From Candidatus Yanofskybacteria bacterium (GTDB taxonomy: Bacteria; Patescibacteriota; Minisyncoccia; JACQLN01), in the NCBI GenBank assembly GCA_943359335.1, contig CALRHC010000001.1:22466-86465 (forward strand): a stretch of DNA of 64,000 nt, in the 5' to 3' direction. The stretch's first letter is position 1. The number at the start of each line of letters is the position of its first letter. The notes under the pieces are model-generated. The model was given only the letters and a program-made list of their open reading frames with translations, was not told the DNA's origin and searched no databases. The position numbers and the translations under genes are program-made. Below are positions 1,843 through 28,327 of the stretch, piece after piece.

Positions 1843-2874
1843 ATGGTCAAGTTTGATATCAAAAAAATTGTTAGCCGATTAGTAGATAACCTATCGGACC
1901 GCTCAAAGGACATAATCTTGTCCCGATTTGGCATTGGTAAAGATGACTACGATACCCTAGAAGCTATAGGGCAACGCTATGGCATTACTCGTGAAAGGGT
2001 TAGACAGATAGAAGCCGACGCTTTAAAGCATATTAAAAGTGCTTCTAATGAATCTATTATAAAACCGGTAATAACTGTTTTAAATGAATTCATAAAATCT
2101 AACGGTGGTGTTATGGATGAAAATGATCTAAAAGCTAGTTTTGCTTCTAATCATTTTGAAACAAAGCCAGAACCTACAAATAAGTACGAAGGCGCTACAA
2201 TGTTTTTCTTAAACTTGGCGGGTTCATTTGTTAGAACAAAAGAAGACGAAAATTTTTGGCCTCGCTGGGCATTAGAAAATTCTTATGTAAAAAACCAAGA
2301 AGCTTTGGTTGCTCATTTAACTGGTCAATTAAAAAAAGAAAAGAAAGTTGTTGGTTTTGAAGAAATGATTAATTGGGCCAAAAAACATAATACTGTTTTA
2401 AACAAAGATATTGTTTTGGCTTACTTAGCTTCTGCTAAAAATATTTCTAAAAATTCTTTTAGTGAATGGGGAATGATTTCTTGGGCAGAAGTTTCTCCTC
2501 GCGGTGTTCGTGACAAAGCCTACTTGGTAATGAAGCGCACGCAAAAGCCTATGCACTTTACAGAAGTTGCAGGCGAAATTAACAAAGCCAGTTTTTCTAA
2601 ACGCGTAGCTTTGCCTCAAACAGTTCACAATGAACTTATTAAAGATGGTAGATTCGTTTTGGTTGGCCGTGGTTTGTATGCTCTAAAAGATTGGGGTTAC
2701 GAAGCTGGCACAGTTAAAGATGTAATCAAAAGCGTACTTGCAGCCAAGGGTCCAATGAACCGAGAAGATGTTGTAAAATCTGTTTTGGCTAAGCGTATGG
2801 TAAAACCAAGTACAATTATTTTAAATTTAAACGGTTTTAAAAAGAAAGACGATAACAAGTATTATTTACTCTAA
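1843..2874 (+). CDS. sigma-70 region-4-like HTH domain protein, C-terminal 270 aa of unknown function
   Basis: N-terminus ILSRFGIGKDDYDTLEAIGQRYGITRERVRQIEADALKHIK matches the sigma-70 region 4.2 HTH; rest has no recognisable motif. Confidence 0.5.
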   Translation: MVKFDIKKIVSRLVDNLSDRSKDIILSRFGIGKDDYDTLEAIGQRYGITRERVRQIEADALKHIKSASNESIIKPVITVLNEFIKSNGGVMDENDLKASFASNHFETKPEPTNKYEGATMFFLNLAGSFVRTKEDENFWPRWALENSYVKNQEALVAHLTGQLKKEKKVVGFEEMINWAKKHNTVLNKDIVLAYLASAKNISKNSFSEWGMISWAEVSPRGVRDKAYLVMKRTQKPMHFTEVAGEINKASFSKRVALPQTVHNELIKDGRFVLVGRGLYALKDWGYEAGTVKDVIKSVLAAKGPMNREDVVKSVLAKRMVKPSTIILNLNGFKKKDDNKYYLL

Positions 2875-2987: not shown

Positions 2988-3374
2988 ATGGAAACTCCTT
3001 CCGTTGTAATGAATGAAGTTCAGGGGGAATTGTTTTTATTGAAAATGCTATTGAGTAATCTTAAGGCGGCGGAATTATTTATTTCTGCCGGTGTTGAAAT
3101 GGCGGATGCGTTAGTTGATTTATATCCTGCTGCCGATACAGTAGTTACAGAAAAGATGCGGCCCAAGACAATAGAATTTTTTAGATCGTTCGATAGGTCT
3201 ATGAATGCTCTTTCTAAGGATTTTCCAAAAGACTTAATCAAACAAGTCGAGAGTAGAGTAACTATTTTGGAAAAAACAACTACAGAAGGTTTGATAGATC
3301 AATCATCTAATGTTGGCACAGTACAAGGATCCGGAACTAATATTCATGATCCCGACCATACTGCAGAGTTGTAG
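2988..3374 (+). CDS. hypothetical protein (128 aa)
   Basis: ORF with ATG start 7 nt after an A-rich/GGA region; no recognisable motif; moderately elevated GC. Confidence 0.35.
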   Translation: METPSVVMNEVQGELFLLKMLLSNLKAAELFISAGVEMADALVDLYPAADTVVTEKMRPKTIEFFRSFDRSMNALSKDFPKDLIKQVESRVTILEKTTTEGLIDQSSNVGTVQGSGTNIHDPDHTAEL

Positions 3375-3458
3375 TTACTGTTTCGTCCCTAATAAAATGG
3401 GGACGATTTTTTTGTCTTCAAAAATTAGCCCGAGTAAAATCTAAAAATCACATTATAT

Positions 3459-3487
3459 TTGACATATAGTCAAATATTTGCTTTAAT
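3459..3487 (+). promoter_or_regulatory. sigma-70-type promoter (TTGACA-17-TTTAAT) upstream of lipoprotein gene
   Basis: TATATTTGACATATAG shares a 12-nt core with the promoter at 1783. Confidence 0.4.
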
Positions 3488-3539
3488 TTACACTCGTGTT
3501 CCTTGATTTTTTACTTTAATACCTTAAGTGGAGGTTGCA

Positions 3540-5474
3540 ATGATTCGTCGTCTGCTTTGTCTTTTTGCTATTTTGCTAGGCTTAAACGCCTGCGATAGCA
3601 AACGTGATGCGAACAAGATTTTGTCGCCAAATGTGGATGAAGAAGTGGTGGTCGCCCAAACGGAAAAAGAAGATACATCTTCTTGGGATTTAACCAAGGA
3701 TGTGTCTCTAGATTCTGTGCTGGCTATGCCAGTAGGTACAAAGATGTATTTTCGTACGGCTTTCGTCGGTAAGGTTTTGGAAGATTTCGAAGTCACTTTA
3801 GGTTATGGCAAAGTCGTATATGACCTCACTGCGCCGATGCCAGTGATACACTTGATAGCTTCCGACTCGAGGCTAATCGCTTTGGGTGGAGTATCTCACG
3901 GTATGAGTGGATCCCCAGTTTTTACCAAGGACGGCAAGGTCGGTGCGTTATCCATGAGTTTCGATGAGCAGACTGAGGACAAGAACATTGCTTTTTTTGC
4001 GACGTCGATTGAATGGATGAGGAAGGAAATTCCCAACAAGGAAATCAGGCTGGGTAAGCCGGTGGTTTGGAGGGGGTACATTGTAAGGCCATTGGCTCTT
4101 CCTCTGCTGATGTCTGGCGTTAACAATCATCTGATGAATGCGGCCATTCTCGAATACGCCGACAAACTGGGCGACGGCAATCTCAATATGTTATCGGCAT
4201 CAGGTTCGGCCGGAGCCGGTGGTAATATTGAACAGAAGTTTGAAGATGGTAGCCCGTTGACCGGAGTATTATTTACGGGAGACGAGGTGATCATCGGTGC
4301 CACAGGAACGGCAACCGATGTCCGAGGCAATAACATTTTCGGTTTCGGCCATCCCTGGTGGGGTAACGGGCAGACTTCGTTAGCCATGGTGGCCACCGAA
4401 ATTCTGGCCGAGGTTAGTGGTCCGTCGCCGTTCAAGTTAGCCAGGTTGGGCAATAAGGTTCTTGGGGAAATTATTTACGACCGTATGCCTGGAGTTGGGG
4501 GAGTTTTGGGCCAAATGCCCGAAATGATTCCCTTGGTTTTTAACGCTTCAATTTTTGGCGAGAAGGCGTTAAGCATGAATCATCAAATGTCTCCGGTAGT
4601 TTTATCCGGTTTCGACATGTTCATGCAGGCCATAATGGCCGGTACCACACTTCTTTCTCCTCTGGCCAATAGGCTAGACAATGCCAACGACAAAAGTTTG
4701 ATAGTTCGGACCAAAATCGACTTTAAGGGTTCTAACTTGAAGGTTGATTTTGAAAGGACTTATGCCCAGCCTCATGCTGGTGTATTGGATTTGATGAATG
4801 GTCCTTTGTTTGGTTTTGTTAATGCCTATTTAGGTTCTGTGGGTAACGATTATGCTGATCTGAAAGTTAGCAACATCCAAATGAATGTGGATGTTGTGGA
4901 CGAACCTTTGTTCGCAATCATACAAGGCTTCGAGGCGGATAGTGTCGTTACCGCTGGTAGTGATTTGCCAGTTAAGATCAGTTTAAGGGTTGGAGCAACT
5001 AAAGACGTCGATCTTAACTTGGCTTTTGCTGTGCCGGATAGTTTTGAGGCCGGCATCTATAGCCTGACGGTGGGTTCACTCGCAGCTTTGGAATATTCTT
5101 CCTATGAACCTTCCGATCCGAGCAAGTTTAAAAATCTGGAAGATGTGTTTGAAGACATCAACGAGGTTGATGGTAGTACCACTTTAAAGCTGGTTTTGTC
5201 TTTCAACGAGCCTTTGCCAGTGGAGGCCCCAGATAGCTTGGTGATTGTTGTGCCTGATACAGTAGTTGTGCCTGCTGATACAGTAAAGGTGGATTCACTG
5301 ATGCCTGTGCCACCACCAGTGATGGGTGGTGGTTCGATTGTGTCCTCACCAGGATTGCTACCTCCTTATCAAGAATCTATTGTCTATAACGATAAAGCCA
5401 GTATGGAAAAAAAGATAGACTGGGTTTTGCAGTATGATACAGGTACGGTTAAGGTGAAGGCGATGAAGAAGTAA
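3540..5474 (+). CDS. exported lipoprotein with SpoIVB/S55-like serine-peptidase motif (GMSGSP...GK.GA) and C-terminal Pro/Val-rich repeats
   Basis: ATG at 3540 preceded by GGAGG (the ORF-track start at 3528 is a GTG inside the SD); signal peptide MIRRLLCLFAILLGLNAC with a lipobox Cys; motif GGVSHGMSGSPVFTKDGKVGALSMSF resembles the catalytic-Ser region of peptidase S55; GC about 45-50% versus about 34% genome. Confidence 0.45.
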   Translation: MIRRLLCLFAILLGLNACDSKRDANKILSPNVDEEVVVAQTEKEDTSSWDLTKDVSLDSVLAMPVGTKMYFRTAFVGKVLEDFEVTLGYGKVVYDLTAPMPVIHLIASDSRLIALGGVSHGMSGSPVFTKDGKVGALSMSFDEQTEDKNIAFFATSIEWMRKEIPNKEIRLGKPVVWRGYIVRPLALPLLMSGVNNHLMNAAILEYADKLGDGNLNMLSASGSAGAGGNIEQKFEDGSPLTGVLFTGDEVIIGATGTATDVRGNNIFGFGHPWWGNGQTSLAMVATEILAEVSGPSPFKLARLGNKVLGEIIYDRMPGVGGVLGQMPEMIPLVFNASIFGEKALSMNHQMSPVVLSGFDMFMQAIMAGTTLLSPLANRLDNANDKSLIVRTKIDFKGSNLKVDFERTYAQPHAGVLDLMNGPLFGFVNAYLGSVGNDYADLKVSNIQMNVDVVDEPLFAIIQGFEADSVVTAGSDLPVKISLRVGATKDVDLNLAFAVPDSFEAGIYSLTVGSLAALEYSSYEPSDPSKFKNLEDVFEDINEVDGSTTLKLVLSFNEPLPVEAPDSLVIVVPDTVVVPADTVKVDSLMPVPPPVMGGGSIVSSPGLLPPYQESIVYNDKASMEKKIDWVLQYDTGTVKVKAMKK

Positions 5475-5481
5475 GCTCTTT

Positions 5482-5516
5482 AGAGCGAAGCGGAAAAACC
5501 GCTTCGCTCTTTTTAT
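5482..5516 (+). terminator. intrinsic terminator (AGAGCGAAGCGG-AAAAA-CCGCTTCGCTCT + TTTTT)
   Basis: 12-bp perfect stem followed by a T-run immediately after the stop at 5474. Confidence 0.75.
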
Positions 5517-5554
5517 TTTATTAAGATAATAAAAGTGATAAAATATAATATAAG

Positions 5555-6871
5555 ATGTTGCAAAATCCGTTTAGTTTAATATTCGATATTTTGGGAGTAG
5601 TCTCACACCATATTTGGTTATGGGGTTGGGTTTTTTTGCCGATTCTTTTGGCACCATTTTTATGGGATGCCTATATGTACCACATTCGTATTAAAACTTT
5701 AAAAAAATTTAAATGGCAGATGTTGGAATTTCGCTTACCGCCAGATGTGGAAAAAAGCCCATTGGCAATGGAACAGGTTTTAGCAATCTTACAAAGCACT
5801 CTTTTTAAAGGTGGTTGGTGGAAACGCTATGTGGAAGGGCGCGTTCAAGAATGGTTTAGTTTAGAAATAACTTCTTTCGAAGGCGAATTACATTTTTATA
5901 TTCGAACACTTGGGCAATTTAGAAATTTAGTTGAGGCGGCAATTTATGCACAATATCCACAAGCCGAAATTTTTGATGCTGAAGATTATACGGCAAACGT
6001 TCCAGCAATAATCCCAAACGAAACCCACGACCTTTTTGGTTGCGAACTTAAATTGGCACGTGAAGATGGTTACCCAATACGCACCTATAAAGATTTCGAA
6101 TTAAAGACCGAAAGTAGCAAAGAAGGTGGTTCTAATATTTCTTTGGTGGATCCTTTGGCGGGCATAGCCGAAACAATGACGCGTTTAAAAAAAGGTGAAC
6201 AAGCTTGGATTCAAATCGCTATAAGACCAACCGATGACGGTTGGAAAAAAGTAGCAATGGAGACGGTTTTAAAATTAGTCGGGCGCCCTAAAAAAGAAGT
6301 GCCACAGGGTTCTTATATGTGGGCGTTACTTAAAAAAGAATTATCCGATTTTGCTAAGGGAGCAGTGCAAGCGCCTTTTAAAACTCCGGAATTTGAACCT
6401 TTTGAATGGGGTTCACCAAAAAGTGATAAGCCTCACTCATTAATGCAGTTTCTTACTTCGGGTGAAAAAGAAATTATAGAGGCAATAGAAAGAAAAACCT
6501 CTAAAGTGGGTTTTGAGACAGTTATTAGAGTTGTGTATATAGGTACTAAAGAAGCTTTTTATATACCAACATTTTTTCAGGTGGCTTCCGGTTTTAACCA
6601 GTTTAGTACACAAAATTTAAATTCTATAAAAAGAGATGGCGCCACATTAACTGCAGGAAAATTTCCTTTTAAAAAATTTAAAGAAATGCAAAAGAAGAAG
6701 TGGATGTTATATAAATATAGAATTCGCGGCCGACCAGATACTATGTTTGTAATGAATACAGAAGAACTGGCAACACTTTACCACTTCCCAGGACGAGTTG
6801 TTATGGCGCCAAGCTTGCCTAGAGTTCAAGCTAAAAAAGGCGAACCACCAGCAGGATTACCCAGTTATTAG
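5555..6871 (+). CDS. hypothetical membrane protein (2 N-terminal TM segments plus large soluble domain), putative partner of the downstream ATPase
   Basis: 438 aa; hydrophobic N-terminus LIFDILGVVSHHIWLWGWVFLPILLAPFLW; no catalytic motif recognised. Confidence 0.5.
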   Translation: MLQNPFSLIFDILGVVSHHIWLWGWVFLPILLAPFLWDAYMYHIRIKTLKKFKWQMLEFRLPPDVEKSPLAMEQVLAILQSTLFKGGWWKRYVEGRVQEWFSLEITSFEGELHFYIRTLGQFRNLVEAAIYAQYPQAEIFDAEDYTANVPAIIPNETHDLFGCELKLAREDGYPIRTYKDFELKTESSKEGGSNISLVDPLAGIAETMTRLKKGEQAWIQIAIRPTDDGWKKVAMETVLKLVGRPKKEVPQGSYMWALLKKELSDFAKGAVQAPFKTPEFEPFEWGSPKSDKPHSLMQFLTSGEKEIIEAIERKTSKVGFETVIRVVYIGTKEAFYIPTFFQVASGFNQFSTQNLNSIKRDGATLTAGKFPFKKFKEMQKKKWMLYKYRIRGRPDTMFVMNTEELATLYHFPGRVVMAPSLPRVQAKKGEPPAGLPSY

Positions 6872-6896
6872 CTTCATTAGCTTTCAGCTTCTTTAG
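6868..6896 (+). repeat. left arm (AGCTTCATTAGC type) of the intergenic palindromic repeat family
   Basis: TTAGCTTCATTAGCTTTCAGCTTCTTTAG; its complementary arm lies at 7258..7289, beyond the four-helix-bundle gene. Confidence 0.6.
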
Positions 6897-6903
6897 ATAT
6901 TAG

Positions 6904-7266
6904 ATGATAAATTCTTACAAAGATTTAATTGTTTGGCAAAAATCATTGAAGTTATCATTGTTGGCTTATGAACTTACCGAAAAATTTCCAAAAGAAGAAA
7001 TCTATGGCTTAACATCGCAAATAAGAAGATCGGCAGTATCAATACCGTCTAATATAGCTGAAGGAAGATATAGAGGGACAAAAAATGATTTTACTCAGTT
7101 TTTAAGAATAGCTTATTCTTCGGGCGCAGAATTAGAGACACAAATAGAAATAGCTAGAAATTTATCAAAGACAAAAGATTTAGATTATTCAAAAATAGAT
7201 ATTTTAATAGTAGAGGTTATGAAGATGTTAAATGTTATGATAAGAAATATAAATCCTAAAAGCTAA
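6904..7266 (+). CDS. four-helix-bundle protein (23S rRNA intervening-sequence protein family)
   Basis: 120 aa, LIVWQKSLKLSLLAYELTEKFPKEE...QIRRSAVSIPSNIAEG..F..IAYSSGAELETQIEIA is the signature of this family. Confidence 0.75.
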   Translation: MINSYKDLIVWQKSLKLSLLAYELTEKFPKEEIYGLTSQIRRSAVSIPSNIAEGRYRGTKNDFTQFLRIAYSSGAELETQIEIARNLSKTKDLDYSKIDILIVEVMKMLNVMIRNINPKS

Positions 7267-7289
7267 AGAAGCTAGTGAAGCTAAAAGCT
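7258..7289 (+). repeat. right arm (GCTAATGAAGCT type) of the palindromic repeat family, ending at the ATG at 7290
   Basis: AGCTAAAGAAGCTAGTGAAGCTAAAAGCT|ATG; same arm precedes ATGs at 15601, 20835, 23430, 33591 and 36412(-). Confidence 0.6.
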
Positions 7290-9005
7290 ATGAATGACGA
7301 AATAACTTTATTTGCCGAAACAAATTTTAGAAACGAGAAGCGTCGTTTTGGTATTAAAAAAGACGATCGCCGCAGGCACACCTATATTATTGGAAAAACC
7401 GGTATGGGTAAAACGACCATGCTCGAAAACATGATTATTTCGGATATTATTCATGGCAAGGGTTTAGGTTTTATAGACCCACACGGGGATTCGGCCGAGA
7501 AAATTTTAGAATTTGTTCCACCAGAACGCATAAACGATGTAATTTATTTCGATCCTTCCGATTTAGAAATGCCTATAGCTTTTAATGCTATAGAAAATGT
7601 TGAAGCCGAAAAAAAGCATTTAGTAGCTTCGGGTTTGATGGGTGTGTTTAAAAAAATCTGGCCCGATGTATGGTCGGCCAGAATGGAATATATTTTAAAC
7701 AATACTATTTTAGCTTTGCTAGATTACCCTGGCGCCACTATTTTGGGTATTATGCGAATGCTTTCTAATAAAGAATACCGCAAGCAAGTGGTGGATGAAA
7801 TTAAGGATCCAATGGTTAAATCTTTCTGGGTAGATGAATTTGCTAAGTATACAGATAGATTTGCGGCCGAAGCCACTCCAGCTATTCAAAACAAAGTTGG
7901 GCAGTTTTTATCGGCTGCGGTTATTCGTAATATTGTAGGCCAAGTAAATAGTGCTATGGATATGCGCAAGGTTATGGACGAAGGCAAGATTTTAATTATG
8001 AACCTTTCCAAGGGCAAAATCGGCGAAGATAATTCTAAACTTTTGGGTGGTTTGCTGGTTACAAAATTACAGTTAGCAGCTATGAGCCGTGTAGATATTC
8101 CCGAAGAAGACCGTAAAGATTTCTTTTTATACGTAGACGAGTTTCAGAATTTTGCGACAGAATCTTTTGGTAATATTCTTTCCGAAGCTCGCAAATATCG
8201 CTTAGCCCTTATTTTGGCTAATCAGTACATTGCTCAATTAGTGCAAAGCGTGGGTGGTTCTAAAAGCACAGCGGTGCGAGACGCAATATTTGGTAACGTT
8301 GGTACCCTAATTTCTTTTAGGGTAGGCGCCGAAGATGCCGAATATTTAGAAAAAGAATTTGCACCAGAATTTGTGGCAACCGATATTGTTAATTTAGCCA
8401 AATACAATGTTTACTTAAAACTTATGATAGACGGCGCAGCTTCGCGGGCTTTTTCGGCCACAACTTTAGCTCCATACCCAAAACCAGCTGTTAATAATCG
8501 CGATGCCATTATTAAACATTCTAGGGAAACTTATGGCACACCTCGCGAAGACGTAGAAAATGAAATAGCCGATTGGGCTGGTGTTAGAGATTTAATGCCA
8601 TCTAGTATAAAAGCAGCAAAAGCAGAAAGTGATGCTGCTTTTCGTGATGGTTACGATACAGAAGCCGCACCAGCGGTTTCTGCTTCCAAGCCAAAAAGCG
8701 ACAAAGATCTTTTTGAAGCTGTTTGTTGGGAGGGTGGGGAAAAAGTTTGGGTGCCATTTAAACCAGATGGAGTCCGCCCAATTTATTGTAAAAACCATTT
8801 ATATAAATTAAACGAAGTTAAACAGCAAGTTATTTTTGAACAGTTTAAACCAGTAAGTTTGAAAGATGCTTTGCAGAAGGGCGGCATAGTTAATCACATA
8901 GGTAATAATCCTCGTCCAAATAAAAAGAAAAATAAACCTAAAGAACCTCCAGCCGATATAGAAGGTTTGCGTTCGCTGCTTTCCGATATCAAGCCAACTA
9001 CTTAA
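7290..9005 (+). CDS. P-loop ATPase of the TraD/VirD4/HerA-FtsK-like superfamily (T4SS DNA-binding-domain type) with C-terminal Cys/His zinc-ribbon-like motif
   Basis: Walker A IIGKTGMGKTT, Walker B LYVDEFQNF; C-terminus CWEGGEKVWVPFKPDGVRPIYCKNH; start set at ATG 7290 (ORF-track GTG 7275 lies inside the repeat arm) by analogy with the other repeat copies. Confidence 0.6.
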   Translation: MNDEITLFAETNFRNEKRRFGIKKDDRRRHTYIIGKTGMGKTTMLENMIISDIIHGKGLGFIDPHGDSAEKILEFVPPERINDVIYFDPSDLEMPIAFNAIENVEAEKKHLVASGLMGVFKKIWPDVWSARMEYILNNTILALLDYPGATILGIMRMLSNKEYRKQVVDEIKDPMVKSFWVDEFAKYTDRFAAEATPAIQNKVGQFLSAAVIRNIVGQVNSAMDMRKVMDEGKILIMNLSKGKIGEDNSKLLGGLLVTKLQLAAMSRVDIPEEDRKDFFLYVDEFQNFATESFGNILSEARKYRLALILANQYIAQLVQSVGGSKSTAVRDAIFGNVGTLISFRVGAEDAEYLEKEFAPEFVATDIVNLAKYNVYLKLMIDGAASRAFSATTLAPYPKPAVNNRDAIIKHSRETYGTPREDVENEIADWAGVRDLMPSSIKAAKAESDAAFRDGYDTEAAPAVSASKPKSDKDLFEAVCWEGGEKVWVPFKPDGVRPIYCKNHLYKLNEVKQQVIFEQFKPVSLKDALQKGGIVNHIGNNPRPNKKKNKPKEPPADIEGLRSLLSDIKPTT

Positions 9006-9456
9006 ACTTTATAGGTATTTCTATTTTATCGTCGTGTTCGGGCAATCCGGATGGATTGTCTTTTTTTAGTATTAAAAAACCAGTGCTTGTTGTTGGTTCT
9101 TTTTCAAAATAAAATTCTTGAGAAAACGGAACAAAATCTGTGGTCATCCATTCTGCTTTTGCTTGAATTGGTTCTAAAAGTAAAACATTTTCATCTGCAT
9201 CTTTAAGTTCTATTGGAAACGAAGCTTCGAAATACCAATTGCCTCTGGCTTCGCCTTCTATTACAAATGGATTTGTTATAATATCCCCAGCTTTAATATT
9301 ATTAACTTTAATTAAATCTTTTTTAGCATCTATTTTTTCTTGGTAACTAGAAATAAATTCTTTAGAAAAAACCGGAGCATATTTTTTATAAACAAATAGT
9401 CCTAGTATAGAAATGGCTGTTACGAAGCAGATAAATATAAGTAATTTTTTAAGCAT
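8998..9456 (-). CDS. hypothetical N-terminally anchored or exported protein (152 aa)
   Basis: Single N-terminal hydrophobic helix LLIFICFVTAISILGLFVY; no motif. Confidence 0.4.
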   Translation of the reverse strand: MLKKLLIFICFVTAISILGLFVYKKYAPVFSKEFISSYQEKIDAKKDLIKVNNIKAGDIITNPFVIEGEARGNWYFEASFPIELKDADENVLLLEPIQAKAEWMTTDFVPFSQEFYFEKEPTTSTGFLILKKDNPSGLPEHDDKIEIPIKFK

Positions 9457-9512: not shown

Positions 9513-10616
9513 ATGTCAAATAGTGTTGATCGAAAGGTATACATAGGAATGTCGGGCGGGGTTGATAGCTCTGTTGCCGCTTTGTTGTTAAAAAACGAAG
9601 GCTATAATGTAACCGGTGTTTTTATGAAAAACTGGAGCGATCCAGCTTGGCCTTGCCCATGGGAAGAAGATCGCGCCGATGCTATGCGAGTTTGTTTAAA
9701 ACTTGGTATACCTTTCGAAACTTGGGATTTTACTAAAGAATACAAAGAAAAAGTTGTAGATTATATGATCCGCGAATACGCGGCCGGCCGAACGCCAAAC
9801 CCAGATGTAATGTGCAATAAAGAAATTAAGTTTGGTTTATTTTTTAATAAAGCCATAGAACTTGGTGCAGATTTTATTGCAACGGGACACTATGTGAGAA
9901 AAATCAAAAATCAAAAATCAAATCTCAAAAATTATGTACTCGCTCGCGCTCGCTATTTAGATAAGGATCAGTCTTACTTTCTTTGGACGCTCAAGCAGGG
10001 TCAGATAGAAAAATGTTTGTTTCCAATAGGCGAAATAGAATCTAAAGCCGAGGTTAGAAAAATTGCAGAAGGAGCAAGCCTGCCTACGGCAGGTAAAAAA
10101 GATTCGCAGGGAATTTGTTTTATGGGACCGGTAGATATAAAAGAATTTATAAAACCATTTGTTAAAAAAGAAATTGGCGATATTGTTACAACTTCTGGCC
10201 CTGGTCGGGCAAGCCAAAAAGTTGGCACGCATGGCGGTTTAGATTTTTATACTATCGGCCAACGCAAAGGTGTCGGCATTGGCGGCACGGGACCATATTA
10301 TGTTGCTAAAAAAGATTACGAAACTAATACACTAATTGTTTCACCTGTTACAGATATGCAATCATTGGAATCCAAATCGCTTACAGCTTCCGATATAAAT
10401 TTTATAGATGAGCGATTTGTCCCGAGTGCAGCCGAGGGAATCCAAATTCAAGCTTCTATTCGTTATCGCCAAGAACCAGTCTCGGCAGTATTGTCGAAAT
10501 TAGAAAACAATAAATACAAGGTAGAATTTGAAAAACCAGTTCGTGCCGTATCTTCCGGCCAATCAGTTGTGTTTTATAATGGAGACGAAATGTTGGGTGG
10601 TGGCGTGATAGAATAA
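9513..10616 (+). CDS. mnmA: tRNA-specific 2-thiouridylase MnmA
   Basis: PP-loop SGGVDSSVAA, catalytic Cys region, C-terminal barrel; contains a low-complexity insert KIKNQKSNLKN encoded by (ATCAAAA)3. Confidence 0.85.
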   Translation: MSNSVDRKVYIGMSGGVDSSVAALLLKNEGYNVTGVFMKNWSDPAWPCPWEEDRADAMRVCLKLGIPFETWDFTKEYKEKVVDYMIREYAAGRTPNPDVMCNKEIKFGLFFNKAIELGADFIATGHYVRKIKNQKSNLKNYVLARARYLDKDQSYFLWTLKQGQIEKCLFPIGEIESKAEVRKIAEGASLPTAGKKDSQGICFMGPVDIKEFIKPFVKKEIGDIVTTSGPGRASQKVGTHGGLDFYTIGQRKGVGIGGTGPYYVAKKDYETNTLIVSPVTDMQSLESKSLTASDINFIDERFVPSAAEGIQIQASIRYRQEPVSAVLSKLENNKYKVEFEKPVRAVSSGQSVVFYNGDEMLGGGVIE

Positions 10617-10656: not shown

Positions 10657-12375
10657 ATGAATTCTCAAGAAATAAGACAGAGGTTTCTTAAATTTTTCCA
10701 AGAACAGGGGCATAAGGCTGTGCCGTCTAGTTCGCTTGTCCCAACCGATCCCTCGGTTCTTTTAACAACTGCAGGAATGCAGCAGTTTAAACCGTACTTT
10801 GTTGGTCAAAAAGATCCGCTAGCCGATTTTGGTTCTAAAAATACTGTGTCTGTTCAAAAATCTTTCCGCACTTCGGATATTGATGAGGTGGGCGATGAAA
10901 CCCACCTAACATTTTTCGAAATGTTAGGGAACTTTAGTTTTGGCGGGTATTTTAAAAAAGAAGCTATCCATTATGGTTATGAATTTATAACCAAAGAAAT
11001 GGGTCTCACTATCGATTACGTTAGTGTTTTTGAAGGAGACTCGGAAGTCCCAGCCGATACGGAATCGGAAGAAATTTGGAGATCTTTAGGAATTACAAAA
11101 ATAGAAAGATTCGGCAGAAAAGATAATTTTTGGGGTCCAACTGGTGCCGAAGGCCCATGTGGCCCAACCACAGAAATTTATGTTAACGGTGTAGAGGTTT
11201 GGAATATAGTTTTTAATGAATACTATATGAAGCCAGATAAAACTTTAGAACCCTTAAAACAAAAAGGCGTAGATACCGGTATGGGTTTAGATCGTTTAGC
11301 GGTTATGGTACAAGGTAAAAAAAATGTTTTTGAAACAGACTTATTAGAACCAATTTTAAAAATTTTGCCAGAGAGTATGGATTCTCGGCACAAGCGAATA
11401 ATAGCCGATCACTTACGTGCTTCTGTCTTTCTTTTAGCCGACGGTGTAATGCCTTCTAATAAGGATAGGGGTTATATTTTGCGCCGATTGTTGCGCCGAG
11501 CATTTACATACGAACATATATATAAATTTTCACCTCAAACTGGCGAATCTTTAATTATAGAAGTTATAAAAAAATATGGTGATTTTTATCCCGAACTACA
11601 AAATCAAAAAAATAATATTATAGATATATATTTTGGCGAGTGGCAAGGTTTTAAATCGGCTTTAGAACGCGGTTTAAAGGTTTTAGAAAAAGAGAATAGT
11701 ATAGATGCCGAAAAAGCTTTTAATTTTTATGAAACATATGGTTTGCCTTACGATATTATAAAAGAAATTGCCGGTGTTAAAGCAGAAAGTTTAACATTAG
11801 AGGGTTTTGATGAAGAGTTTAAAAAACACCAAGAAATTTCTCGTGCTGGGGCCGAAAAAAAGTTTGGCGGGCATGGCATGGTGGAAGGTGATTTGACTGC
11901 GTTAGATGCGGCCGAGATGAAAGTAAAAACCGGTTTGCATACAGTTACACATTTGTTGAATGCGGCGTTGCACAAAGTTTTGGGCGAAGAAGTTTCTCAG
12001 CGTGGATCCGATATAACCGCAGAAAGAACTCGTTTTGATTTTGTTTTTAATAGGAAACTAACCGATGAAGAAATTAAAAAAGTAGAAGATTTGGTAAACG
12101 AAGCTATCTCAGCCAACTACCCAGTTAAAATAGAAACCATGCCACTGGAGGATGCTAAAAAATCTGGCGCTTTATATTTTTATAAAGGTAATTTTCCAGA
12201 AATGGTTAAGGTTTATTCTTTCGGTCCTTCGGCAGACTCAGGATCTCCTTTCAGTCGAGAAATATGTGGTGGTCCACATGTTTCAAGTACTGGAGAAATT
12301 GTAGGAAAATTTAGAATAATCAAAGAGGAAAGTTCAAGCGCAGGTATTCGCAGGATTAGAGCTACTGTGGAATAG
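10657..12375 (+). CDS. alaS: alanine--tRNA ligase, compact 572-aa form lacking the C-Ala domain
   Basis: N-terminal FLKFFQEQGHKAVPSSSLVP...TTAGMQQFKPYF class-II AlaRS motifs; editing-site HTVTHLLNAALH and CGGPHV present. Confidence 0.8.
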   Translation: MNSQEIRQRFLKFFQEQGHKAVPSSSLVPTDPSVLLTTAGMQQFKPYFVGQKDPLADFGSKNTVSVQKSFRTSDIDEVGDETHLTFFEMLGNFSFGGYFKKEAIHYGYEFITKEMGLTIDYVSVFEGDSEVPADTESEEIWRSLGITKIERFGRKDNFWGPTGAEGPCGPTTEIYVNGVEVWNIVFNEYYMKPDKTLEPLKQKGVDTGMGLDRLAVMVQGKKNVFETDLLEPILKILPESMDSRHKRIIADHLRASVFLLADGVMPSNKDRGYILRRLLRRAFTYEHIYKFSPQTGESLIIEVIKKYGDFYPELQNQKNNIIDIYFGEWQGFKSALERGLKVLEKENSIDAEKAFNFYETYGLPYDIIKEIAGVKAESLTLEGFDEEFKKHQEISRAGAEKKFGGHGMVEGDLTALDAAEMKVKTGLHTVTHLLNAALHKVLGEEVSQRGSDITAERTRFDFVFNRKLTDEEIKKVEDLVNEAISANYPVKIETMPLEDAKKSGALYFYKGNFPEMVKVYSFGPSADSGSPFSREICGGPHVSSTGEIVGKFRIIKEESSSAGIRRIRATVE

Positions 12376-12409: not shown

Positions 12410-14113
12410 ATGTCAAAAGAAAATATATATATAGAACTCCACGAAGATATTCAATCGGCAGTTGAAAAAATACAATCTTCCGAAGCCGACACAATAGACC
12501 TAGTAATTCCAACAGGCGCTAGAATATTACAAAATATAGTAGATGCCCATTTAATAAAAGATGTTGCCGATGAATGTGACAAAGATTTAACCGTGATTAC
12601 AAGTGATCTTATGGGTAAAATTTTTGCAGAACGTGCTGGGTTAGCCGTTACTGGTTTAAATGGTGCCGAGGAATCGGGTGTAGTAGTTTCTCAGGCAATA
12701 TCATCTACCGGTAGAATTAGCGATATTATTCCAAGAAAAAGAGGAATACCAATAGGAATATCTTCCGAAAAAAAACAACAAGCAGTTTTAACCGCTAGAA
12801 CAAAAACCGTGGCAAGGTCTTCTGGTGGTTCTAGATCTAACGATAAAAAAGCAGAAGATTTTTATTTAAAGAAAAATAAAGGTGAAAATGGTGCGAGTTT
12901 TTTAAAATCATACAGAGAAGAACGTTCCAAAGCGAATGTTTTTGGTAATTTAAGTAAAATAAATCATAAAAAGTTTTTAAGCCCTAGTTCTTTTGTAGGG
13001 CTTATTGTTTTTGTAGCACTAGCAGTTTCTTTTGTTGTATTTAGCCAAGTTTTACCAAAGGCAGATATTTTGGTATATCCAGCACGTGAAGCAAAAAATG
13101 GAAGCATAGAAGTTTTTATTTCTGGGAAAGATTCTAAAACAGATTTAGAAAAAGGTATAATCCCTGGCGAACTTTTAACGAGCGAAAAAATGGAAAGTAT
13201 CGAATCTCCAGCAACAGGTACCCAAAGTTCTTCTGGTAAGGCACGAGGCAAGATAACTATATATAATACTTATTCAACACAGGCTCAAAAATTTGTATCT
13301 TCGAGATTTCAATCGGAAAGTGGAAAAATATTTTGGACAGTATCTAGTGTTAGTGTTCCTGGGTACACCACAAAGAGCGGGAAAATAGTTCCCGGAGAAA
13401 TTACAACCGATGTTGTAGCAGCCGAAGGTGGGGATTCTTATAATATTGCCTCTTCCAAATTTACAATGCCCGCATTTAAAGGTACTGCTAAGGGAGATAA
13501 AATTTATGCTGTATCTAAAGAAGCTATGACAGGTGGCGGAGCCAATGGAGCCAAAATTGTTTCAACTAATGACGCTACAAATGCATACGATAGCTTAAAA
13601 GAAGAAATAAAACCTCAGTTTGATTCTTTTAAACAAAATTTACCACAAGGTTTTAGTTTTTGGCCCGAAGCCTATAACGAAGAATTGGCTTCGAGTTCTG
13701 TTTCTCCGGAAGTTGGTTCGGTTGCCGAAAAATTTACAGCTACTGTAAAAATGGTGGCTAGAACGATTGTATTTAAAAACGACGATCTAGATTTATACAT
13801 AAACAAAAGAATCTCTAAAGATATAGACGAAAATAAAACATTGTTAACTAGTTCTAAAGATGTTTCTTTCTTAAAACAACCACTTGTCGATTACCAAAAA
13901 GGTACGGTTTCTGCGACTCTAAATGTTAAATACGATGTAATGGATGACTTTAATATAGATTCTTTCAAGAAAAGTATATTAAATAAAAAGAAAACAAACA
14001 TCGATATCGCCGATTATAAAGCCGACCGCATAGAAGTTAACCTTTGGCCGTTCTGGGTGAGGTCTATTCCATCTAATCCGGATAGGGTAAATGTGACCAT
14101 TGTAGGGCTTTAA
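12410..14113 (+). CDS. hypothetical membrane-anchored protein (567 aa; cytoplasmic N-domain, one TM, large Ser/Thr-rich extracytoplasmic part)
   Basis: TM at about residue 190 (FVGLIVFVALAVSFVVF); no recognised motif. Confidence 0.45.
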   Translation: MSKENIYIELHEDIQSAVEKIQSSEADTIDLVIPTGARILQNIVDAHLIKDVADECDKDLTVITSDLMGKIFAERAGLAVTGLNGAEESGVVVSQAISSTGRISDIIPRKRGIPIGISSEKKQQAVLTARTKTVARSSGGSRSNDKKAEDFYLKKNKGENGASFLKSYREERSKANVFGNLSKINHKKFLSPSSFVGLIVFVALAVSFVVFSQVLPKADILVYPAREAKNGSIEVFISGKDSKTDLEKGIIPGELLTSEKMESIESPATGTQSSSGKARGKITIYNTYSTQAQKFVSSRFQSESGKIFWTVSSVSVPGYTTKSGKIVPGEITTDVVAAEGGDSYNIASSKFTMPAFKGTAKGDKIYAVSKEAMTGGGANGAKIVSTNDATNAYDSLKEEIKPQFDSFKQNLPQGFSFWPEAYNEELASSSVSPEVGSVAEKFTATVKMVARTIVFKNDDLDLYINKRISKDIDENKTLLTSSKDVSFLKQPLVDYQKGTVSATLNVKYDVMDDFNIDSFKKSILNKKKTNIDIADYKADRIEVNLWPFWVRSIPSNPDRVNVTIVGL

Positions 14114-18308: not shown

Positions 18309-18345
18309 TCCGATCGATATCGGAGCTGTTTTTTATTACTTATTA
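18309..18345. terminator. bidirectional intrinsic terminator (ACAGCTCCGAT-CGAT-ATCGGAGCTGT flanked by A-run/T-run) between convergent rpsI and the 18343 gene
   Basis: Near-identical to the hairpin at 2896; A-run on the left and T-run on the right. Confidence 0.7.
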
Positions 18346-19659
18346 AAACTCCCCATCAAAAACTTTTACAGTAGAGTTTTCTAAAATATACAACTTAGAT
18401 TCTTTAGGTAAATAAATTACTTTATCAATTTTATTTTCTGGCCAAGAGGCGATATTTACATTGGAACGAGTGTCTATTTCTGCGGTTTTGAATAATTGTT
18501 CTTCGCTAAATAAAACATATTCGTCAAAGTGATGCCAAAACATTTCTCTTCTAATGGTTTCATTGCTTTGGTAAACTAACTCTTGATCGTTGGTTTTTTT
18601 AATTTGCCCGTTGGTTACTTCTTTTAACCAAATAACGCCAATATTTTTTCCGTTGGAATAAACAGCTTTGTCGCCTTCAAGGGAAAATTCTATAAAGTTT
18701 GGGTTTTCGAATTTAGTTTCACCCAAAGCCGAAATATTTTGTATGGCAGAATCCATCATTAAAAGTATGTTTGGGTTTTTAATAGCGATAATTTTGTTTT
18801 CAAATACATCGAAACTTTGAATGTTACTAAAGTTAAGATCGGTAACTTTTTCTTCTTTAACGTCTATTAAAAACAATTTAGCATCTATTAAGGCGATGAT
18901 GCTGTTTTTGCCAAACCATCTTAGTTCTGTTGGTAAAAACTTTGTAGGCAATGGTGTTGGGCTGGGGTTTTTTAATACTAGTTTTTTTTCGTATAGAGTT
19001 GTTAAGTTGGTAAACAAGTTACTAGTAGAATCGTAAAGATACCAGTTTTTAATAGCTCTTGTTGTTTCTCTTAAAACAATCAATTTTTGTGAATTCTTAG
19101 ACCAACCTTTATTGTTTTCTAAAAAGTTTACACTTTTATTTTTTAACTTATCTGGGAATTTTAATTCAGTCGAAGTGGCATTTATATTTGTTAAATCGCG
19201 CATTAAAATTTTTGCTGTATCTATTTTAATAGCAATAAGTTTTTTATCGTTAGAGATTGAAAAATCGTTTAAGCCTTGTGTTTCCGGCCAAACGATTTGG
19301 CTTTGTAATTGCTTAGGAAAGAGTATTACGTTTTCTGTGTTGGTTACTAAACCTGCGGTAACCTGAAATTCTTTTCCCCATGTTTGAAAAGTTTCTTTAG
19401 AAACATTAATAGTATATTTTTTTGAAGGTAAAAGATTTTTTATTAAAGCTGATCCTTTTTTATTGTAAACCTTACTGTTGTAAGTAATTTCTGTTTCTTT
19501 TGGATACGTTGATTTTACATAGATAGCTCCTGAAAGAACGAAGTTGTTATTTGAAAAATCCCAACGGTAACCTCGGGCGTACACAAGCAAGACAGAGCCT
19601 GCAGTTAAAAATATAACTACGGCTATGCCGAGCAAAATTCGTCTAATTCTTATAGTCAT
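18343..19659 (-). CDS. hypothetical membrane-anchored protein (438 aa, single N-terminal TM, probably beta-rich extracytoplasmic domain)
   Basis: N-terminal LLGIAVVIFLTAGSVLLVYA anchor; no catalytic motif. Confidence 0.4.
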   Translation of the reverse strand: MTIRIRRILLGIAVVIFLTAGSVLLVYARGYRWDFSNNNFVLSGAIYVKSTYPKETEITYNSKVYNKKGSALIKNLLPSKKYTINVSKETFQTWGKEFQVTAGLVTNTENVILFPKQLQSQIVWPETQGLNDFSISNDKKLIAIKIDTAKILMRDLTNINATSTELKFPDKLKNKSVNFLENNKGWSKNSQKLIVLRETTRAIKNWYLYDSTSNLFTNLTTLYEKKLVLKNPSPTPLPTKFLPTELRWFGKNSIIALIDAKLFLIDVKEEKVTDLNFSNIQSFDVFENKIIAIKNPNILLMMDSAIQNISALGETKFENPNFIEFSLEGDKAVYSNGKNIGVIWLKEVTNGQIKKTNDQELVYQSNETIRREMFWHHFDEYVLFSEEQLFKTAEIDTRSNVNIASWPENKIDKVIYLPKESKLYILENSTVKVFDGEF

Positions 19660-27532: not shown

Positions 27533-28327
27533 ATGTCTAATTGGCAGAAAATTGCTATAACCCTTTTTACAGCGACTATTTTATTTTTTTTAGATAAAGC
27601 TGGTTTTTTTAATTTTTCTGTAAATTTACTAAATCGTTTTGGAGTGGCTCCAATTACAAGATCGGTTTTTTATTTAGGCAAGGAAAGCAGTTTTTTATTT
27701 AAAAATATTTTTGGTGTAAGAGATTTAATAAAAGAAAATATCTTTTTAAAAAGTGAAAGAGATTTTTTTAGGGGAGAATATTTTAAAATTCTGCAGTTAA
27801 AAGAAGAAAACGATTTTTTGCGTAAAGCTTTAAGTTTGGGCCAAAAAGAATCTAAAAAAATAATTTTTGCAGACACTCTTTCGCTAGACCCATTCCAAGC
27901 TAGTGATTCTTTATTAGTAAATAAAGGTTTTAAAGATGGGGTTGGTGTGGGTGATTCGGTAATTCTTTCTGGAAATATTTTAGTTGGTCGGATAAAGGAA
28001 GTTTTTGCTAAAGAGAGTAGGGTTACCTTAGTAACATCAGCTCAAAATAAAGTTACGGTTGCTTCCGAAGACAGTGGGGTTAAGGGTGTAATAACGGGTT
28101 CTGCTAGTGGCGTGCTTAATTTAGATCTTGTTTTAAAAGAATCGGAATTAATAAGTGGGCAGATCCTCTTAAGTTCTGGGTTGGATGGTTTTTTTAAAGG
28201 TGGTTTTTTAGTAGGAGAGGTTGTTAAGGTTAGTAATAGCGATTCTGATCCTTTTAAAAAAGCTTTAGTGCGACCATTCTTTAATTCTAAGGATTTAAAA
28301 CAAGTTTTCATTATTGTTTCCGAATAG
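27533..28327 (+). CDS. mreC: rod-shape-determining protein MreC
   Basis: N-terminal TM, coiled-coil, two beta domains (GDSVILSGNILVGRIKEV; LLSSGLDGFFKGGFLVGEVVKV). Confidence 0.7.
   Translation: MSNWQKIAITLFTATILFFLDKAGFFNFSVNLLNRFGVAPITRSVFYLGKESSFLFKNIFGVRDLIKENIFLKSERDFFRGEYFKILQLKEENDFLRKALSLGQKESKKIIFADTLSLDPFQASDSLLVNKGFKDGVGVGDSVILSGNILVGRIKEVFAKESRVTLVTSAQNKVTVASEDSGVKGVITGSASGVLNLDLVLKESELISGQILLSSGLDGFFKGGFLVGEVVKVSNSDSDPFKKALVRPFFNSKDLKQVFIIVSE

Follow-up and report, generated by a model that had tools for sequence, protein, structure and literature searches.

A DUF8128 membrane protein and a VirD4/TrwB-type ATPase encoded side by side in Patescibacteria: a probable split coupling protein

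The locus and its boundaries

The DNA analysed here is a stretch of 64,000 nucleotides from Candidatus Yanofskybacteria, referred to below as the window. Positions 5555-9005 of its forward strand hold a module made up of a gene for a 438-aa DUF8128 membrane protein (5555..6871), a 23S-IVP passenger gene (6904-7266) and a gene for a P-loop ATPase (7290-9005), each at the place where a sequence-only reading had put it. Terminator-like hairpins lie on either side. The first (5482..5510, forward strand), of the intrinsic type with a 12-bp stem (8 GC) and a T tail, closes an upstream 648-aa gene and marks the 5′ limit of the transcription unit. The second, also with a T tail, is found at 9040..9061 on the same strand, 35 nt 3′ of the ATPase stop codon. 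No terminator of comparable strength was found inside 5555-9005; the weak candidates at 5637, 7717 and 7901 each have a stem of 6 bp followed by a poor T tail. A candidate sigma-70-like promoter (TTAAGA-17-TATAAT, 5521..5549, forward strand) ends 6 nt 5′ of the membrane-gene ATG. It is a consensus match only, and promoter-like matches in the region are no more numerous than the shuffled expectation.

Further upstream, a gene at 1843..2874 (forward strand) encodes a DNA-binding protein of 343 aa with Sigma70-region-4 and HARE-HTH domains. In 76 of 80 related loci this gene stands immediately before the one for DUF8128 and, judging by gene order, its product is a syntenic neighbour of the pair; it is absent beside the fused genes of Gracilibacteria-like genomes described below. 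The window departs from the usual arrangement in that a lineage-specific insertion (2988..5474, forward strand) splits the HARE-HTH gene off from the DUF8128 gene. The GC content of this insertion is raised (0.44 versus about 0.36), and it holds two open reading frames. One (2988-3374) encodes 128 aa and has a terminator to itself (3383-3406); the other (3528-5474) encodes a putative lipoprotein of 648 aa with weak SpoIVB/S55-like serine-protease similarity.

Within the module, a passenger cassette (6869..7274, forward strand) consists of the middle gene and imperfect inverted repeats. The 120-aa product of this gene is a four-helix-bundle protein of the 23S_rRNA_IVP family (PF05635, E 3.5e-36; TIGR02436). 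The repeats (6869-6902 / 7241-7274) are 74% complementary, and 89% in their core (6886-6903 / 7256-7273). A GIY-YIG gene occupies the equivalent slot in two other loci (L001 and L077), a 97%-identical relative being among its carriers, and in most loci the slot is empty. The earlier description of the four-helix-bundle gene as an insertion is thereby borne out: the cassette sits at the intergenic slot of the split point and is not part of the module.

All window genes other than the module are housekeeping genes. Among the open reading frames of at least 150 aa with Pfam matches in the 64 kb, none is a T4SS, pilus, relaxase or competence gene, which agrees with the initial statement that conjugation, pilus and competence genes are missing. 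Integrase and mating-pair-formation (mpf) genes are likewise absent from the locus, as are VirB3, VirB6 and VirB8 neighbours. The window encodes its own complete FtsK (alpha, motor and gamma; 30413-32734). GC content in 2-kb windows over both genes is 0.36-0.37, similar to most of the 64 kb. The small selfish genes inserted at the locus (IVP, GIY-YIG) and the relatives carried by Bacillota plasmids might suggest that the pair was left behind by a conjugative or mobilisable element that had integrated here. We consider this extremely improbable, given the missing integrase, relaxase and mpf genes and the ordinary GC content, and because both reading frames are intact with invariant catalytic motifs and the chromosomal position recurs in 74 or more divergent genomes.

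An anchor and a motor on separate proteins

The membrane protein had been read as having two N-terminal transmembrane segments and a large soluble domain with no recognisable motif. The first description is not supported and the second does not hold. Hydrophobic, Trp-rich sequence forms one stretch only, spanning about aa 5-42 (nt 5567-5680) and modelled as one long helix (5-51), and PF26449 (DUF8128) is precomputed on a public protein of 100% identity as well as on all 120 listed homologues. The local Pfam copy, which appears older than the PF26449 model, gave no match. The basic flank IRIKTLKKFKW that follows the hydrophobic stretch puts the soluble domain on the cytoplasmic side. This alpha/beta domain is modelled with a fold like that of the VirB4 N-terminal domain, TrwK (VirB4) being its best structural match. 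No sequence similarity was detected: nothing was found when the DUF8128 profile was compared to TcpF/VirB4 by hhalign, and no VirB4 was found in a PDB profile search. The relation of DUF8128 to VirB4, as seen in the model, is structural only. TrsD, a remote homologue of the VirB4 N-terminus in monoderm T4SS, is abundant in Patescibacteria (PMC12102498); compared by description only, TrsD homologues are mostly found beside virB4, whereas DUF8128 is found beside a T4CP-like ATPase. A weak structural likeness to EccE of ESX type VII secretion, a different secretion system for which no sequence similarity to DUF8128 was found, is an analogy only. The protein also has a conserved NxEELATxxHFP motif (nt 6755-6790) and ends in a disordered, conserved tail, KKGEPPxGLP (nt 6833-6868).

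The ATPase (7290..9005, forward strand), a VirD4/TrwB-type protein, counts 571 aa from the ATG at 7290 used in the public gene call; an alternative GTG start at 7275 would give 576 aa. Its N-terminus lies some 35 aa ahead of Walker A, and it has no hydrophobic segment, its top 19-residue Kyte-Doolittle value of 1.45 being below the transmembrane threshold of 1.6. Walker A (GKTGMGKTT, nt 7392-7418, aa 40-48) and Walker B (FFLYVDEFQ, nt 8121-8147, aa 283-291, reported earlier as LYVDEFQ) are both present. An inserted helical domain at about aa 101-230 is extremely conserved, more so than any other part of the protein, and contains an invariant block (nt 7617-7721). Seven helices occupy aa ~106-214 of the structure model, between the Walker motifs, and phmmer aligns TrwB on either side of this stretch, a correspondence seen at the level of the interval as a whole. 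A variable linker leads to the Cys/His string CWEGGEKVWVPFKPDGVRPIYCKNH (nt 8724-8798), after which comes a basic tail. This string had been noticed before and is indeed present; its placement at the end of the protein was mistaken, as 68 residues follow it. The region is a degenerate copy of a CxxC-x17-CxxC zinc ribbon (PF23477/TIGR04272) that is intact in most homologues; in the window's lineage two of the four Cys are gone. As a sequence feature, the ribbon suggests nucleic-acid binding, a reading that this loss weakens.

The proposed place of the ATPase in the T4SS coupling-protein (T4CP) lineage is supported. With TrwB of R388, DotL and other VirD4/TrwB/TraD proteins it shares an FtsK-HerA-type P-loop nucleotide-binding domain (NBD) of T4CP-like fold, intact and aligned Walker A (RH-x4-G-x-TG-x-GK[ST]) and Walker B (hhhh[DV]DE) motifs, and an all-alpha domain inserted between the two. 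The Pfam T4CP profiles, TrwB_AAD_bind, TraG-D_C and T4SS-DNA_transf, all exceed their GA cut-offs (PF10412, 47.4 bits, GA 20.5; PF12696, 27.1, GA 22; PF02534, 24.9, GA 20.1). The NCBIfam T4CP equivalogs (TraD, CD1115) are matched far below their full-length cut-offs; the ATPase is therefore a T4CP member at the family level and not an equivalog. It did not classify into a housekeeping family. An FtsK/SpoIIIE identity was rejected, PF01580 matching Walker A only (E 0.0059, 16.5 bits, GA 24).

Unlike T4CPs, which carry an N-terminal transmembrane anchor on the same polypeptide, the ATPase has no transmembrane helix, and the anchor resides with a ~370-aa VirB4-NTD-like domain on the separate DUF8128 protein. 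The window ATPase further differs in its C-terminal zinc ribbon, in the lack of relaxase and mpf genes in the 64-kb window and in belonging to a chromosomal, vertically inherited pair that is unusually conserved, the helical domain most of all. A precedent for a coupling ATPase anchored in trans is found in pIP501, where the separately encoded membrane protein TraI has been put forward as the tether of the coupling protein TraJ (PMC12857230). By description, TraI is a small two-TM protein, whereas the window partner has a large folded cytoplasmic domain, and the pIP501 pair, unlike the window pair, lies inside a conjugation operon.

Adjacency, conservation and fusion of the two genes

The ATPase gene lies directly downstream of the DUF8128 gene, on the same strand, in 74 of 79 patescibacterial loci from many lineages, with gaps of 0-241 nt. 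Where an adjacent ATPase is missing (5 of 80 loci), one locus stops at a contig edge and four have other genes downstream. The two genes thus co-occur in other genomes, and the membrane protein can be taken as the partner of the ATPase, as the sequence-only reading had supposed. Median identity in the same loci is 62.6% for the ATPase, 47.5% for MnmA, 43.3% for AlaRS and 37.8% for DUF8128, with the ATPase above the other three in every paired comparison. Gene order with secDF, mnmA and alaS is kept across divergent lineages. Patescibacteria inherit the pair vertically as part of their core genome; it is not a mobile element.

This context also bears on the suggestion that the pair could serve in anti-phage defence or plasmid partition, as an ATPase like HerA, DndH/DptH or those of MADS working with a membrane adaptor. 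PADLOC matches of the ATPase to mad8 (3.1e-16), HerA (2e-5) and DndH (6e-3) speak for it, yet this homology is generic. DUF8128 has no PADLOC match, the partner genes (NurA, Sir2, DndFG/DptFG, mad1-7) are not in the neighbourhood, and viral contigs gave one marginal match only. The conserved gene order, together with purifying selection that is stronger on the ATPase than on housekeeping enzymes, is unlike patchy, fast-turnover defence islands, leaving this option little support and making it very improbable.

MAGs of the Gracilibacteria/Altimarinota type encode a single protein of 845-967 aa that is colinear with both window proteins. DUF8128 aligns over its full length to aa ~1-410 of this protein at 27-32% identity (down to 7e-52), and the ATPase core to aa ~420-870 at 52-59% (down to 2e-174), with about 8 residues between the two parts and the anchor in cis. 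PHROG 5156 matches both window proteins in unchanged order. Fusions carrying PF26449 and DUF87 also occur on Bacillota plasmids, some of them named 'type IV secretory system conjugative DNA transfer family protein'; their identity to the window ATPase is 28%. The fused proteins thus hold, on one polypeptide, the same modules that the window encodes as two, in the same order and with PF26449 on the N-terminal part; no PF23477 zinc ribbon was matched among those listed. On a Shouchella clausii plasmid (NZ_CP012476) the fusion DB29_RS21110 adjoins a Replic_Relax (relaxase-like) gene, and the plasmid also has a separate TcpF/VirB4, a CD3337/EF1877 membrane protein and a lytic transglycosylase. From these neighbours, the fusion fills the T4CP slot. 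While Bacillota fusions adjoin relaxase-like and Tcp-type transfer genes, the Gracilibacteria fusions are chromosomal, like the window pair, and no T4SS, relaxase or mating-pair-formation genes were found around the fused genes of loci L083-L085.

Because the two genes are adjacent in Patescibacteria and fused elsewhere, and because the Bacillota fusion lies beside a relaxase-like gene, the pair is very probably a split T4CP-type two-protein motor, cut at the linker between N-terminal region and motor. DUF8128 is the membrane-anchor, N-terminal half of this split coupling protein and the ATPase is its motor half. The original two-gene pairing stands; instead of a new minimal system, the pair is the split form of a single T4CP-type protein. 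Improbable by comparison is a split VirB4-like ATPase that assembles or energises a system and is not a substrate receptor. The DUF8128 fold is nearest TrwK/VirB4, and the ATPase fold is equally close to the VirB4 CTD and to DptH/DndH, so that structure alone cannot separate T4CP from VirB4; the T4CP assignment rests on sequence profiles and on the plasmid position of the fused homologue. TIGR00929 (E 4.8e-4, 20 residues) and NF045975 (8e-4, 43 residues, aa 28-70) cover only the P-loop, at about 18 bits versus cut-offs of 590-643, and P-loop_TraG reaches E 0.048, whereas the T4CP profiles pass. In addition, the long helical stretch inserted between the two Walker motifs corresponds in position to the TrwB all-alpha domain, the Shouchella plasmid has a separate VirB4 alongside the fused homologue, and VirB-type neighbours are absent from the locus.

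Role in or outside a secretion system

A 2025 survey reported T4CP homologues in 2,918 of 3,026 Patescibacteria assemblies (96%), with only 148 of 5,713 near virB4, and its authors raised the exaptation of these orphan homologues (PMC12102498). Orphan T4CP homologues are already known, and the module described here is real and only partly new; no published account was found of DUF8128 as the partner, of its VirB4-like fold, of the relation between split and fused forms or of the zinc ribbon. The survey further counted Patescibacteria-clade VirB4 in 2,407 assemblies and 109 relaxases in 103 genomes, and reported that T4CP genes often lie away from virB4 in ordinary systems (PMC12102498), so remoteness does not prove independence from a T4SS.

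The T4SS that Patescibacteria encode on their chromosome (usually near dnaA/dnaN) could have in this pair its true coupling protein, encoded remotely and feeding proteins or DNA to a VirB4/VirB6 channel. We regard this as a serious possibility, if short of an even chance. It would account for the T4CP homology of the ATPase, for the fused relative in the T4CP slot of a Bacillota conjugation module and for the frequent distance between virB4 and T4CP genes; monoderm conjugation machinery is the source of the patescibacterial T4SS (PMC12102498), and the VirB4-NTD-like domain could dock to VirB3/VirB6-type partners. However, T4CP homologues occur in more assemblies than patescibacterial VirB4, and the T4CP homologue of S. 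epibionticum is non-essential whereas its T4SS genes are essential (PMC12102498). The helical substrate-recognition domain, far from being variable, shows the highest conservation in the protein, the ATPase is conserved above aminoacyl-tRNA synthetase genes, and T4SS genes were found neither in the 64 kb nor in the fused-gene loci. On balance we lean slightly towards exaptation of the pair to a role without relaxase or classical conjugation.

On the homology, adjacency, natural fusions, folds, conservation and context observed for the pair, we propose that DUF8128 would supply the membrane anchor and a cytoplasmic VirB4-NTD-like domain, and the ATPase the P-loop NBD with its inserted all-helical domain, C-terminal zinc ribbon and basic tail. 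The conserved C-terminal tail of DUF8128 may dock on the N-terminal strands of the ATPase, tethering an ATP-driven ring, presumably hexameric by homology with TrwB, to the inner membrane face. This ring would serve as translocase or substrate receptor; its cargo, most likely nucleic acid, and its direction of transport are both conjectural. More tentatively, and with some doubt, the pair may be a T4SS-independent, near-universal patescibacterial membrane motor derived from a domesticated coupling protein, its VirB4-NTD-like half then pointing to a once common two-domain architecture of VirD4 and VirB4. In cells unable to make nucleotides, such a motor could, for example, carry nucleic acid, whether taken from the host or their own, across the membrane or along it.

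Patescibacteria represent a large share of bacterial diversity, with tiny genomes and a life on other cells, and near-universal genes conserved above tRNA synthetases are likely central to that lifestyle. The survey left open what the orphan coupling-protein homologues attach to; DUF8128 provides a partner. The two-protein motor thereby gains an architecture, an anchor with a VirB4-like domain joined to motor domains with a zinc ribbon, and the natural fusions make the DUF8128-ATPase interaction directly testable. DUF8128 is placed in the T4SS protein universe and bears on the divergence of VirB4 and VirD4. Should the pair prove T4SS-independent, it would clearly exemplify how conjugation machinery can be recruited to a core function of the cell.

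A probable coupling-protein ATPase and its gene neighbours

ORF calling in the window places three ORFs on the forward strand: the membrane protein gene (5555-6871, 438 aa), a 23S_rRNA_IVP passenger (the IVP gene, 6904-7266, 120 aa; PF05635 at E 3.5e-36, TIGR02436) and the ATPase gene (7275-9005, 576 aa from a GTG; the public call starts at ATG 7290 and yields 571 aa). The ORFs and motifs quoted in the sequence-only reading were all located, with Walker A (GKTGMGKTT) at nt 7392-7418, Walker B (FFLYVDEFQ) at nt 8121-8147 and the Cys/His string, a zinc ribbon, at nt 8724-8798, each on the forward strand. The first gene is preceded by a promoter-like match (5521-5549) and, before that, by a terminator-like hairpin of good strength (5482-5510); the next comparable terminator follows the ATPase gene (9040-9061), so that the three ORFs look like a single transcription unit.

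In the Pfam scan, the ATPase passes the thresholds of TrwB_AAD_bind (47.4 bits against a cut-off of 20.5), TraG-D_C and T4SS-DNA_transf, whereas its matches to DUF87, FtsK_SpoIIIE and P-loop_TraG are sub-threshold. The sequence evidence supports the proposed membership of the type IV coupling protein (T4CP) and HerA-FtsK lineage. The NCBIfam scan returned only partial, below-cut-off matches to the TraD, CD1115, TrbC, CedD and VirB4 equivalogs. By sequence, the best solved relatives are TrwB (6.6e-6) and DotL (4e-4); the alignments bring the Walker A and Walker B regions into register. An AlphaFold2 model (pLDDT 72 overall, core mostly >80) matches the DptH/DndH C-domain and the VirB4 CTD (23.3 each), DotL (22.4), TrwB (22.3), Cag-beta (19.3) and HerA (17.8). 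These figures place the modelled fold in the VirB4/VirD4 branch of the FtsK-HerA superfamily without separating VirB4 from VirD4; the sequence profiles favour the T4CP assignment.

No hydrophobic segment was found in the ATPase. Between its Walker motifs the model predicts about seven helices (aa ~106-214) in the position of the TrwB all-alpha domain, and this inserted domain is the most conserved region of the protein, with a mean top-residue frequency of 0.86 that rises to 0.98 at aa 111-130. The all-alpha domain of classical T4CPs is tied to substrate recognition and differs between systems; here it is near-invariant, suggesting one partner shared by all of these organisms. An unconserved linker (aa 431-472; mean top-residue frequency 0.17) leads to the PF23477/TIGR04272 zinc ribbon. 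Most ATPase homologues carry the CxxC-x17-CxxC form of this ribbon; the window lineage and its closest relatives have CWEG…CKNH, with two of the four cysteines lost and the surrounding PFKPDGxRPIYCK core retained, so that zinc binding may be lost or altered in this lineage.

The DUF8128 membrane protein

Neither the Pfam scan nor the NCBIfam scan matched the membrane protein (the Pfam copy apparently predates PF26449), and searches of PDB sequences, whether by the protein alone or by a 61-sequence profile, gave only chance matches, to MOB1 and FokI. In a database of 5.8 billion proteins 2,974 homologues were found, and PF26449, which is DUF8128, is annotated on every homologue among the matches listed, the identical protein included. 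HMMER, run in full over 1.84 billion representatives, returned 3,761 clusters at E<=1e-3; the matches listed from this library are close, unfused members and add no distant relatives. The best-conserved motifs are NxEELATxxHFP and a C-terminal KKGEPPxGLP. A separate 438-aa ORF (18343-19659) was tested as a DUF8128 paralogue and rejected.

The N-terminus had been read as two transmembrane segments. Two separate segments were not confirmed; there is a single hydrophobic Trp-rich stretch (~aa 5-42) with a basic flank behind it, which AlphaFold2 models as one long helix. The model, built on the 61-sequence alignment (pLDDT 85, pTM 0.78), further contains alpha/beta domains and a conserved but disordered tail. 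VirB4 is where the structure searches with this model lead, and Foldseek independently ranked eight chains of TrwK, a VirB4, at the top with a probability of 0.99. The search did not give aligned ranges; since no P-loop protein other than TrwK/VirB4 is in the structure-search lists and the DUF8128 model itself lacks a P-loop, the match would have to fall on the N-terminal, non-ATPase part of VirB4, which DUF8128 thus appears to resemble. Alignment of the DUF8128 profile against TcpF/VirB4 with hhalign detected no relation, so the link to the VirB4 N-terminal domain, as modelled, is structural only.

Gene pairing and natural fusions

Alignment of DUF8128 led us to 80 loci, fetched as contigs with one genome per species, all from Patescibacteria MAGs (Parcubacteria/Paceibacterota together with many named candidate phyla). 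By tblastn, 74 of the 79 non-self loci have the ATPase gene, in the same orientation, as the next gene downstream at a distance of 0-241 nt; at one locus an 825-nt gap is occupied by a GIY-YIG gene. An adjacent ATPase is missing from five of the 80, once at a contig edge and four times with other genes downstream. At two loci without it (L003 and L047), these genes appear by eye, from their translations, to be NusA, trigger factor and ClpP homologues, and a third (L057) encodes a more divergent DUF8128 protein of 485 aa. This adjacency supports the pairing proposed from the window, and natural fusions support it more strongly.

A weak tblastn match uncovered one such fusion on a Shouchella clausii plasmid, an 883-aa 'DUF87' protein whose N-terminal part aligns with DUF8128 (1e-7) and whose C-terminal part aligns with the ATPase of the window (28% identity, 1e-46). 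Searching with this protein retrieved Bacillaceae/Paenibacillaceae proteins with PF26449 and PF01935, some of them named 'type IV secretory system conjugative DNA transfer family protein', together with proteins of ~670-1,000 aa (most 750-1,000) carrying PF26449, PF10412, PF01935, PF02534 and PF12696, two of which are assigned by name to Gracilibacteria and Altimarinota MAGs. The MAG fusions are colinear with the window pair: their N-terminal ~410 aa correspond to DUF8128 over its full length (27-32% identity, E-values as low as 7e-52), the following ~430 aa to the core of the ATPase (52-59% identity, as low as 2e-174), and only ~8 residues lie between the two parts. The two window proteins are likewise both matched, in this order, by PHROG 5156. 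Judged by this colinearity, the window pair is best read as the split form of one protein, cut at a linker that AlphaFold2 predicts to be disordered. At 8067-12059 of L081, a locus of the Pontibacillus sp. ALD_SL1 megaplasmid (NZ_CP062975), a fused DUF8128-ATPase gene is disrupted: the DUF8128-like ORF ends in Walker A (…SGMTGVGK) and the ATPase remainder is found in separate ORFs (9602-10156 and 11631-12059). Among the nearby genes, one is a pilin-like gene of conjugal transfer and another is of the sigma-factor-like HTH kind.

The match of the DUF8128 model to TrwK/VirB4 raises the alternative that the pair is a split VirB4-like energiser. The Shouchella plasmid, however, encodes a separate TcpF-type VirB4 (NF052333, E 1.9e-254), a CD3337/EF1877 mobilome membrane protein and a lytic transglycosylase/C40 peptidase, and the gene that follows the fusion immediately downstream encodes a Replic_Relax protein; the coupling-protein position is thus filled by the fusion, distinct from VirB4. 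This evidence is positional rather than functional proof. Together with the sequence profiles, it leaves a VirB4-like energiser improbable, and we hold with considerable confidence that the pair is a split, T4CP-type two-protein motor.

The intergenic slot, which coincides with the split point, is an insertion hot spot that is empty in most loci and otherwise holds small selfish-type genes that differ per genome. In the window (6869-7274), the IVP gene lies between imperfect inverted repeats (6869-6902 and 7241-7274). A 97%-identical relative (L001, slot 1562-1816) has an 84-aa ORF and L077 (slot 7789-8163) a 124-aa ORF, both GIY-YIG-like by eye.

Genomic context and possible role

All window ORFs of at least 150 aa with Pfam matches are housekeeping genes, among them secDF, mnmA, alaS, ribosomal protein genes, rpoA, two mreB, mreC, holB, rseP, proS, a complete ftsK, recA, two sigma factors, dnaG, helicases, recJ, tpi, pgk, murJ and lepA. 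The Gracilibacteria-like fused genes are likewise found among housekeeping genes. Over the 79 loci, median identity to the window protein is 62.6% for the ATPase, 47.5% for MnmA, 43.3% for AlaRS, 37.8% for DUF8128 and 37.2% for the upstream HTH protein, and the ATPase is the better conserved partner in every paired comparison. Replacement of FtsK by the ATPase was dropped, as the window has a full FtsK. A defence role is very unlikely. Less credible still is a mobile-element remnant: an integrated element was dropped since there are no integrase, relaxase or mpf genes and synteny is conserved. A phage origin was dropped because the viral-contig scan gave one marginal, truncated match.

The upstream HTH protein (343 aa, 1843-2874, preceded by secD/secF) combines an N-terminal sigma70 region 4 with a C-terminal HARE-HTH. 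Its gene directly precedes the one for DUF8128 in 76 of the 80 patescibacterial loci, where it may encode a DNA-binding adaptor of the pair or may simply reflect conserved synteny, and is not present beside the Gracilibacteria-like fused genes; a 340-aa gene upstream of one of these fusions (L084) was tested as a candidate and rejected. In the window, a lineage-specific insertion of higher GC (2988-5474; 0.44 versus ~0.36) separates the two genes. It contains a 128-aa ORF, which is followed by a terminator of its own (3383-3406), and encodes a putative lipoprotein of 648 aa (signal-like …LLGLNAC) that weakly matches SpoIVB/S55 serine proteases (GMSGSPVF; E 0.008 in Pfam, 0.0013 in NCBIfam). 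Neither ORF has a tblastn match at E<=1e-5 in the 80 loci, of which L001 extends just 189 nt ahead of its DUF8128 gene.

Elsewhere in the window, two full-length MreB/Mbl paralogues (19754-20758 and 26469-27530, both ~E 1e-135) and MreC (27533-28327) are encoded in a genome from a group whose cells are generally characterised as ultra-small cocci or short rods. A ResIII/SNF2-type helicase on the reverse strand (41164-43254), with three C-terminal copies of the 'integrase repeat unit' (INT_rpt, PF14882), adjoins a 957-aa UvrD/PD-(D/E)XK AddA-like helicase-nuclease (43993-46866) and falls within the 40-44 kb stretch where GC skew flattens. At E<=1e-5, Pfam gave no match for four sizeable ORFs, of 567, 438, 273 and 220 aa, at 12410-14113, 18343-19659, 37125-37946 and 58769-59431 respectively.

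The homology, the split and fused forms, the folds, the context and the conservation are shown by the analysis; as a working mechanism that goes beyond them, we propose that the DUF8128 protein inserts in the membrane with its bulk in the cytoplasm, and that its conserved C-terminal tail would bind the N-terminal strands of the ATPase, tail and strands being covalently continuous in the fusions. The ATPase would then assemble as a TrwB-like hexamer at the membrane, where ATP hydrolysis would drive or gate the movement of a polymer, most likely nucleic acid because of the zinc ribbon and basic tail. A membrane anchor supplied in trans has a precedent in the tethering proposed for TraJ and TraI of pIP501 (PMC12857230).

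That T4CPs are orphans in Patescibacteria has been reported before: Quinonero-Coronel et al. (2025, PMC12102498) counted 5,713 VirD4-type T4CP homologues in 2,918 of 3,026 Patescibacteria assemblies, only 148 of them near virB4, alongside Patescibacteria-clade VirB4 in 2,407 assemblies and only 109 relaxases in 103 genomes. In S. epibionticum the T4CP homologue is non-essential and the T4SS genes are essential, and the authors state that exaptation of the T4CP 'cannot be ruled out' (PMC12102498). That the pair serves the patescibacterial T4SS as a remote coupling protein is in our view a serious but weaker candidate. A role independent of relaxase-based conjugation, and possibly of a T4SS, has in our view close to an even chance. 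The same study describes TrsD as a remote homologue of the VirB4 N-terminus that usually adjoins virB4, Gracilibacteria excepted (PMC12102498); a match of the TrsD profile to the fused Gracilibacteria proteins could account for that exception.

A literature search for 'DUF8128' found no paper mentioning it, and neither a CPR protein-family paper (PMC6744442) nor an S. epibionticum preprint (PMC10187176) mentions the pair; we found no earlier description of the DUF8128 partner, its VirB4-like fold or the fusion evidence. The sequence-only reading was essentially right and its finding real, and the pair is a T4CP variant, split, zinc-ribbon-bearing and chromosomally fixed, rather than a new kind of system. 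The motor would be of greater interest if it proved to be independent of a T4SS.
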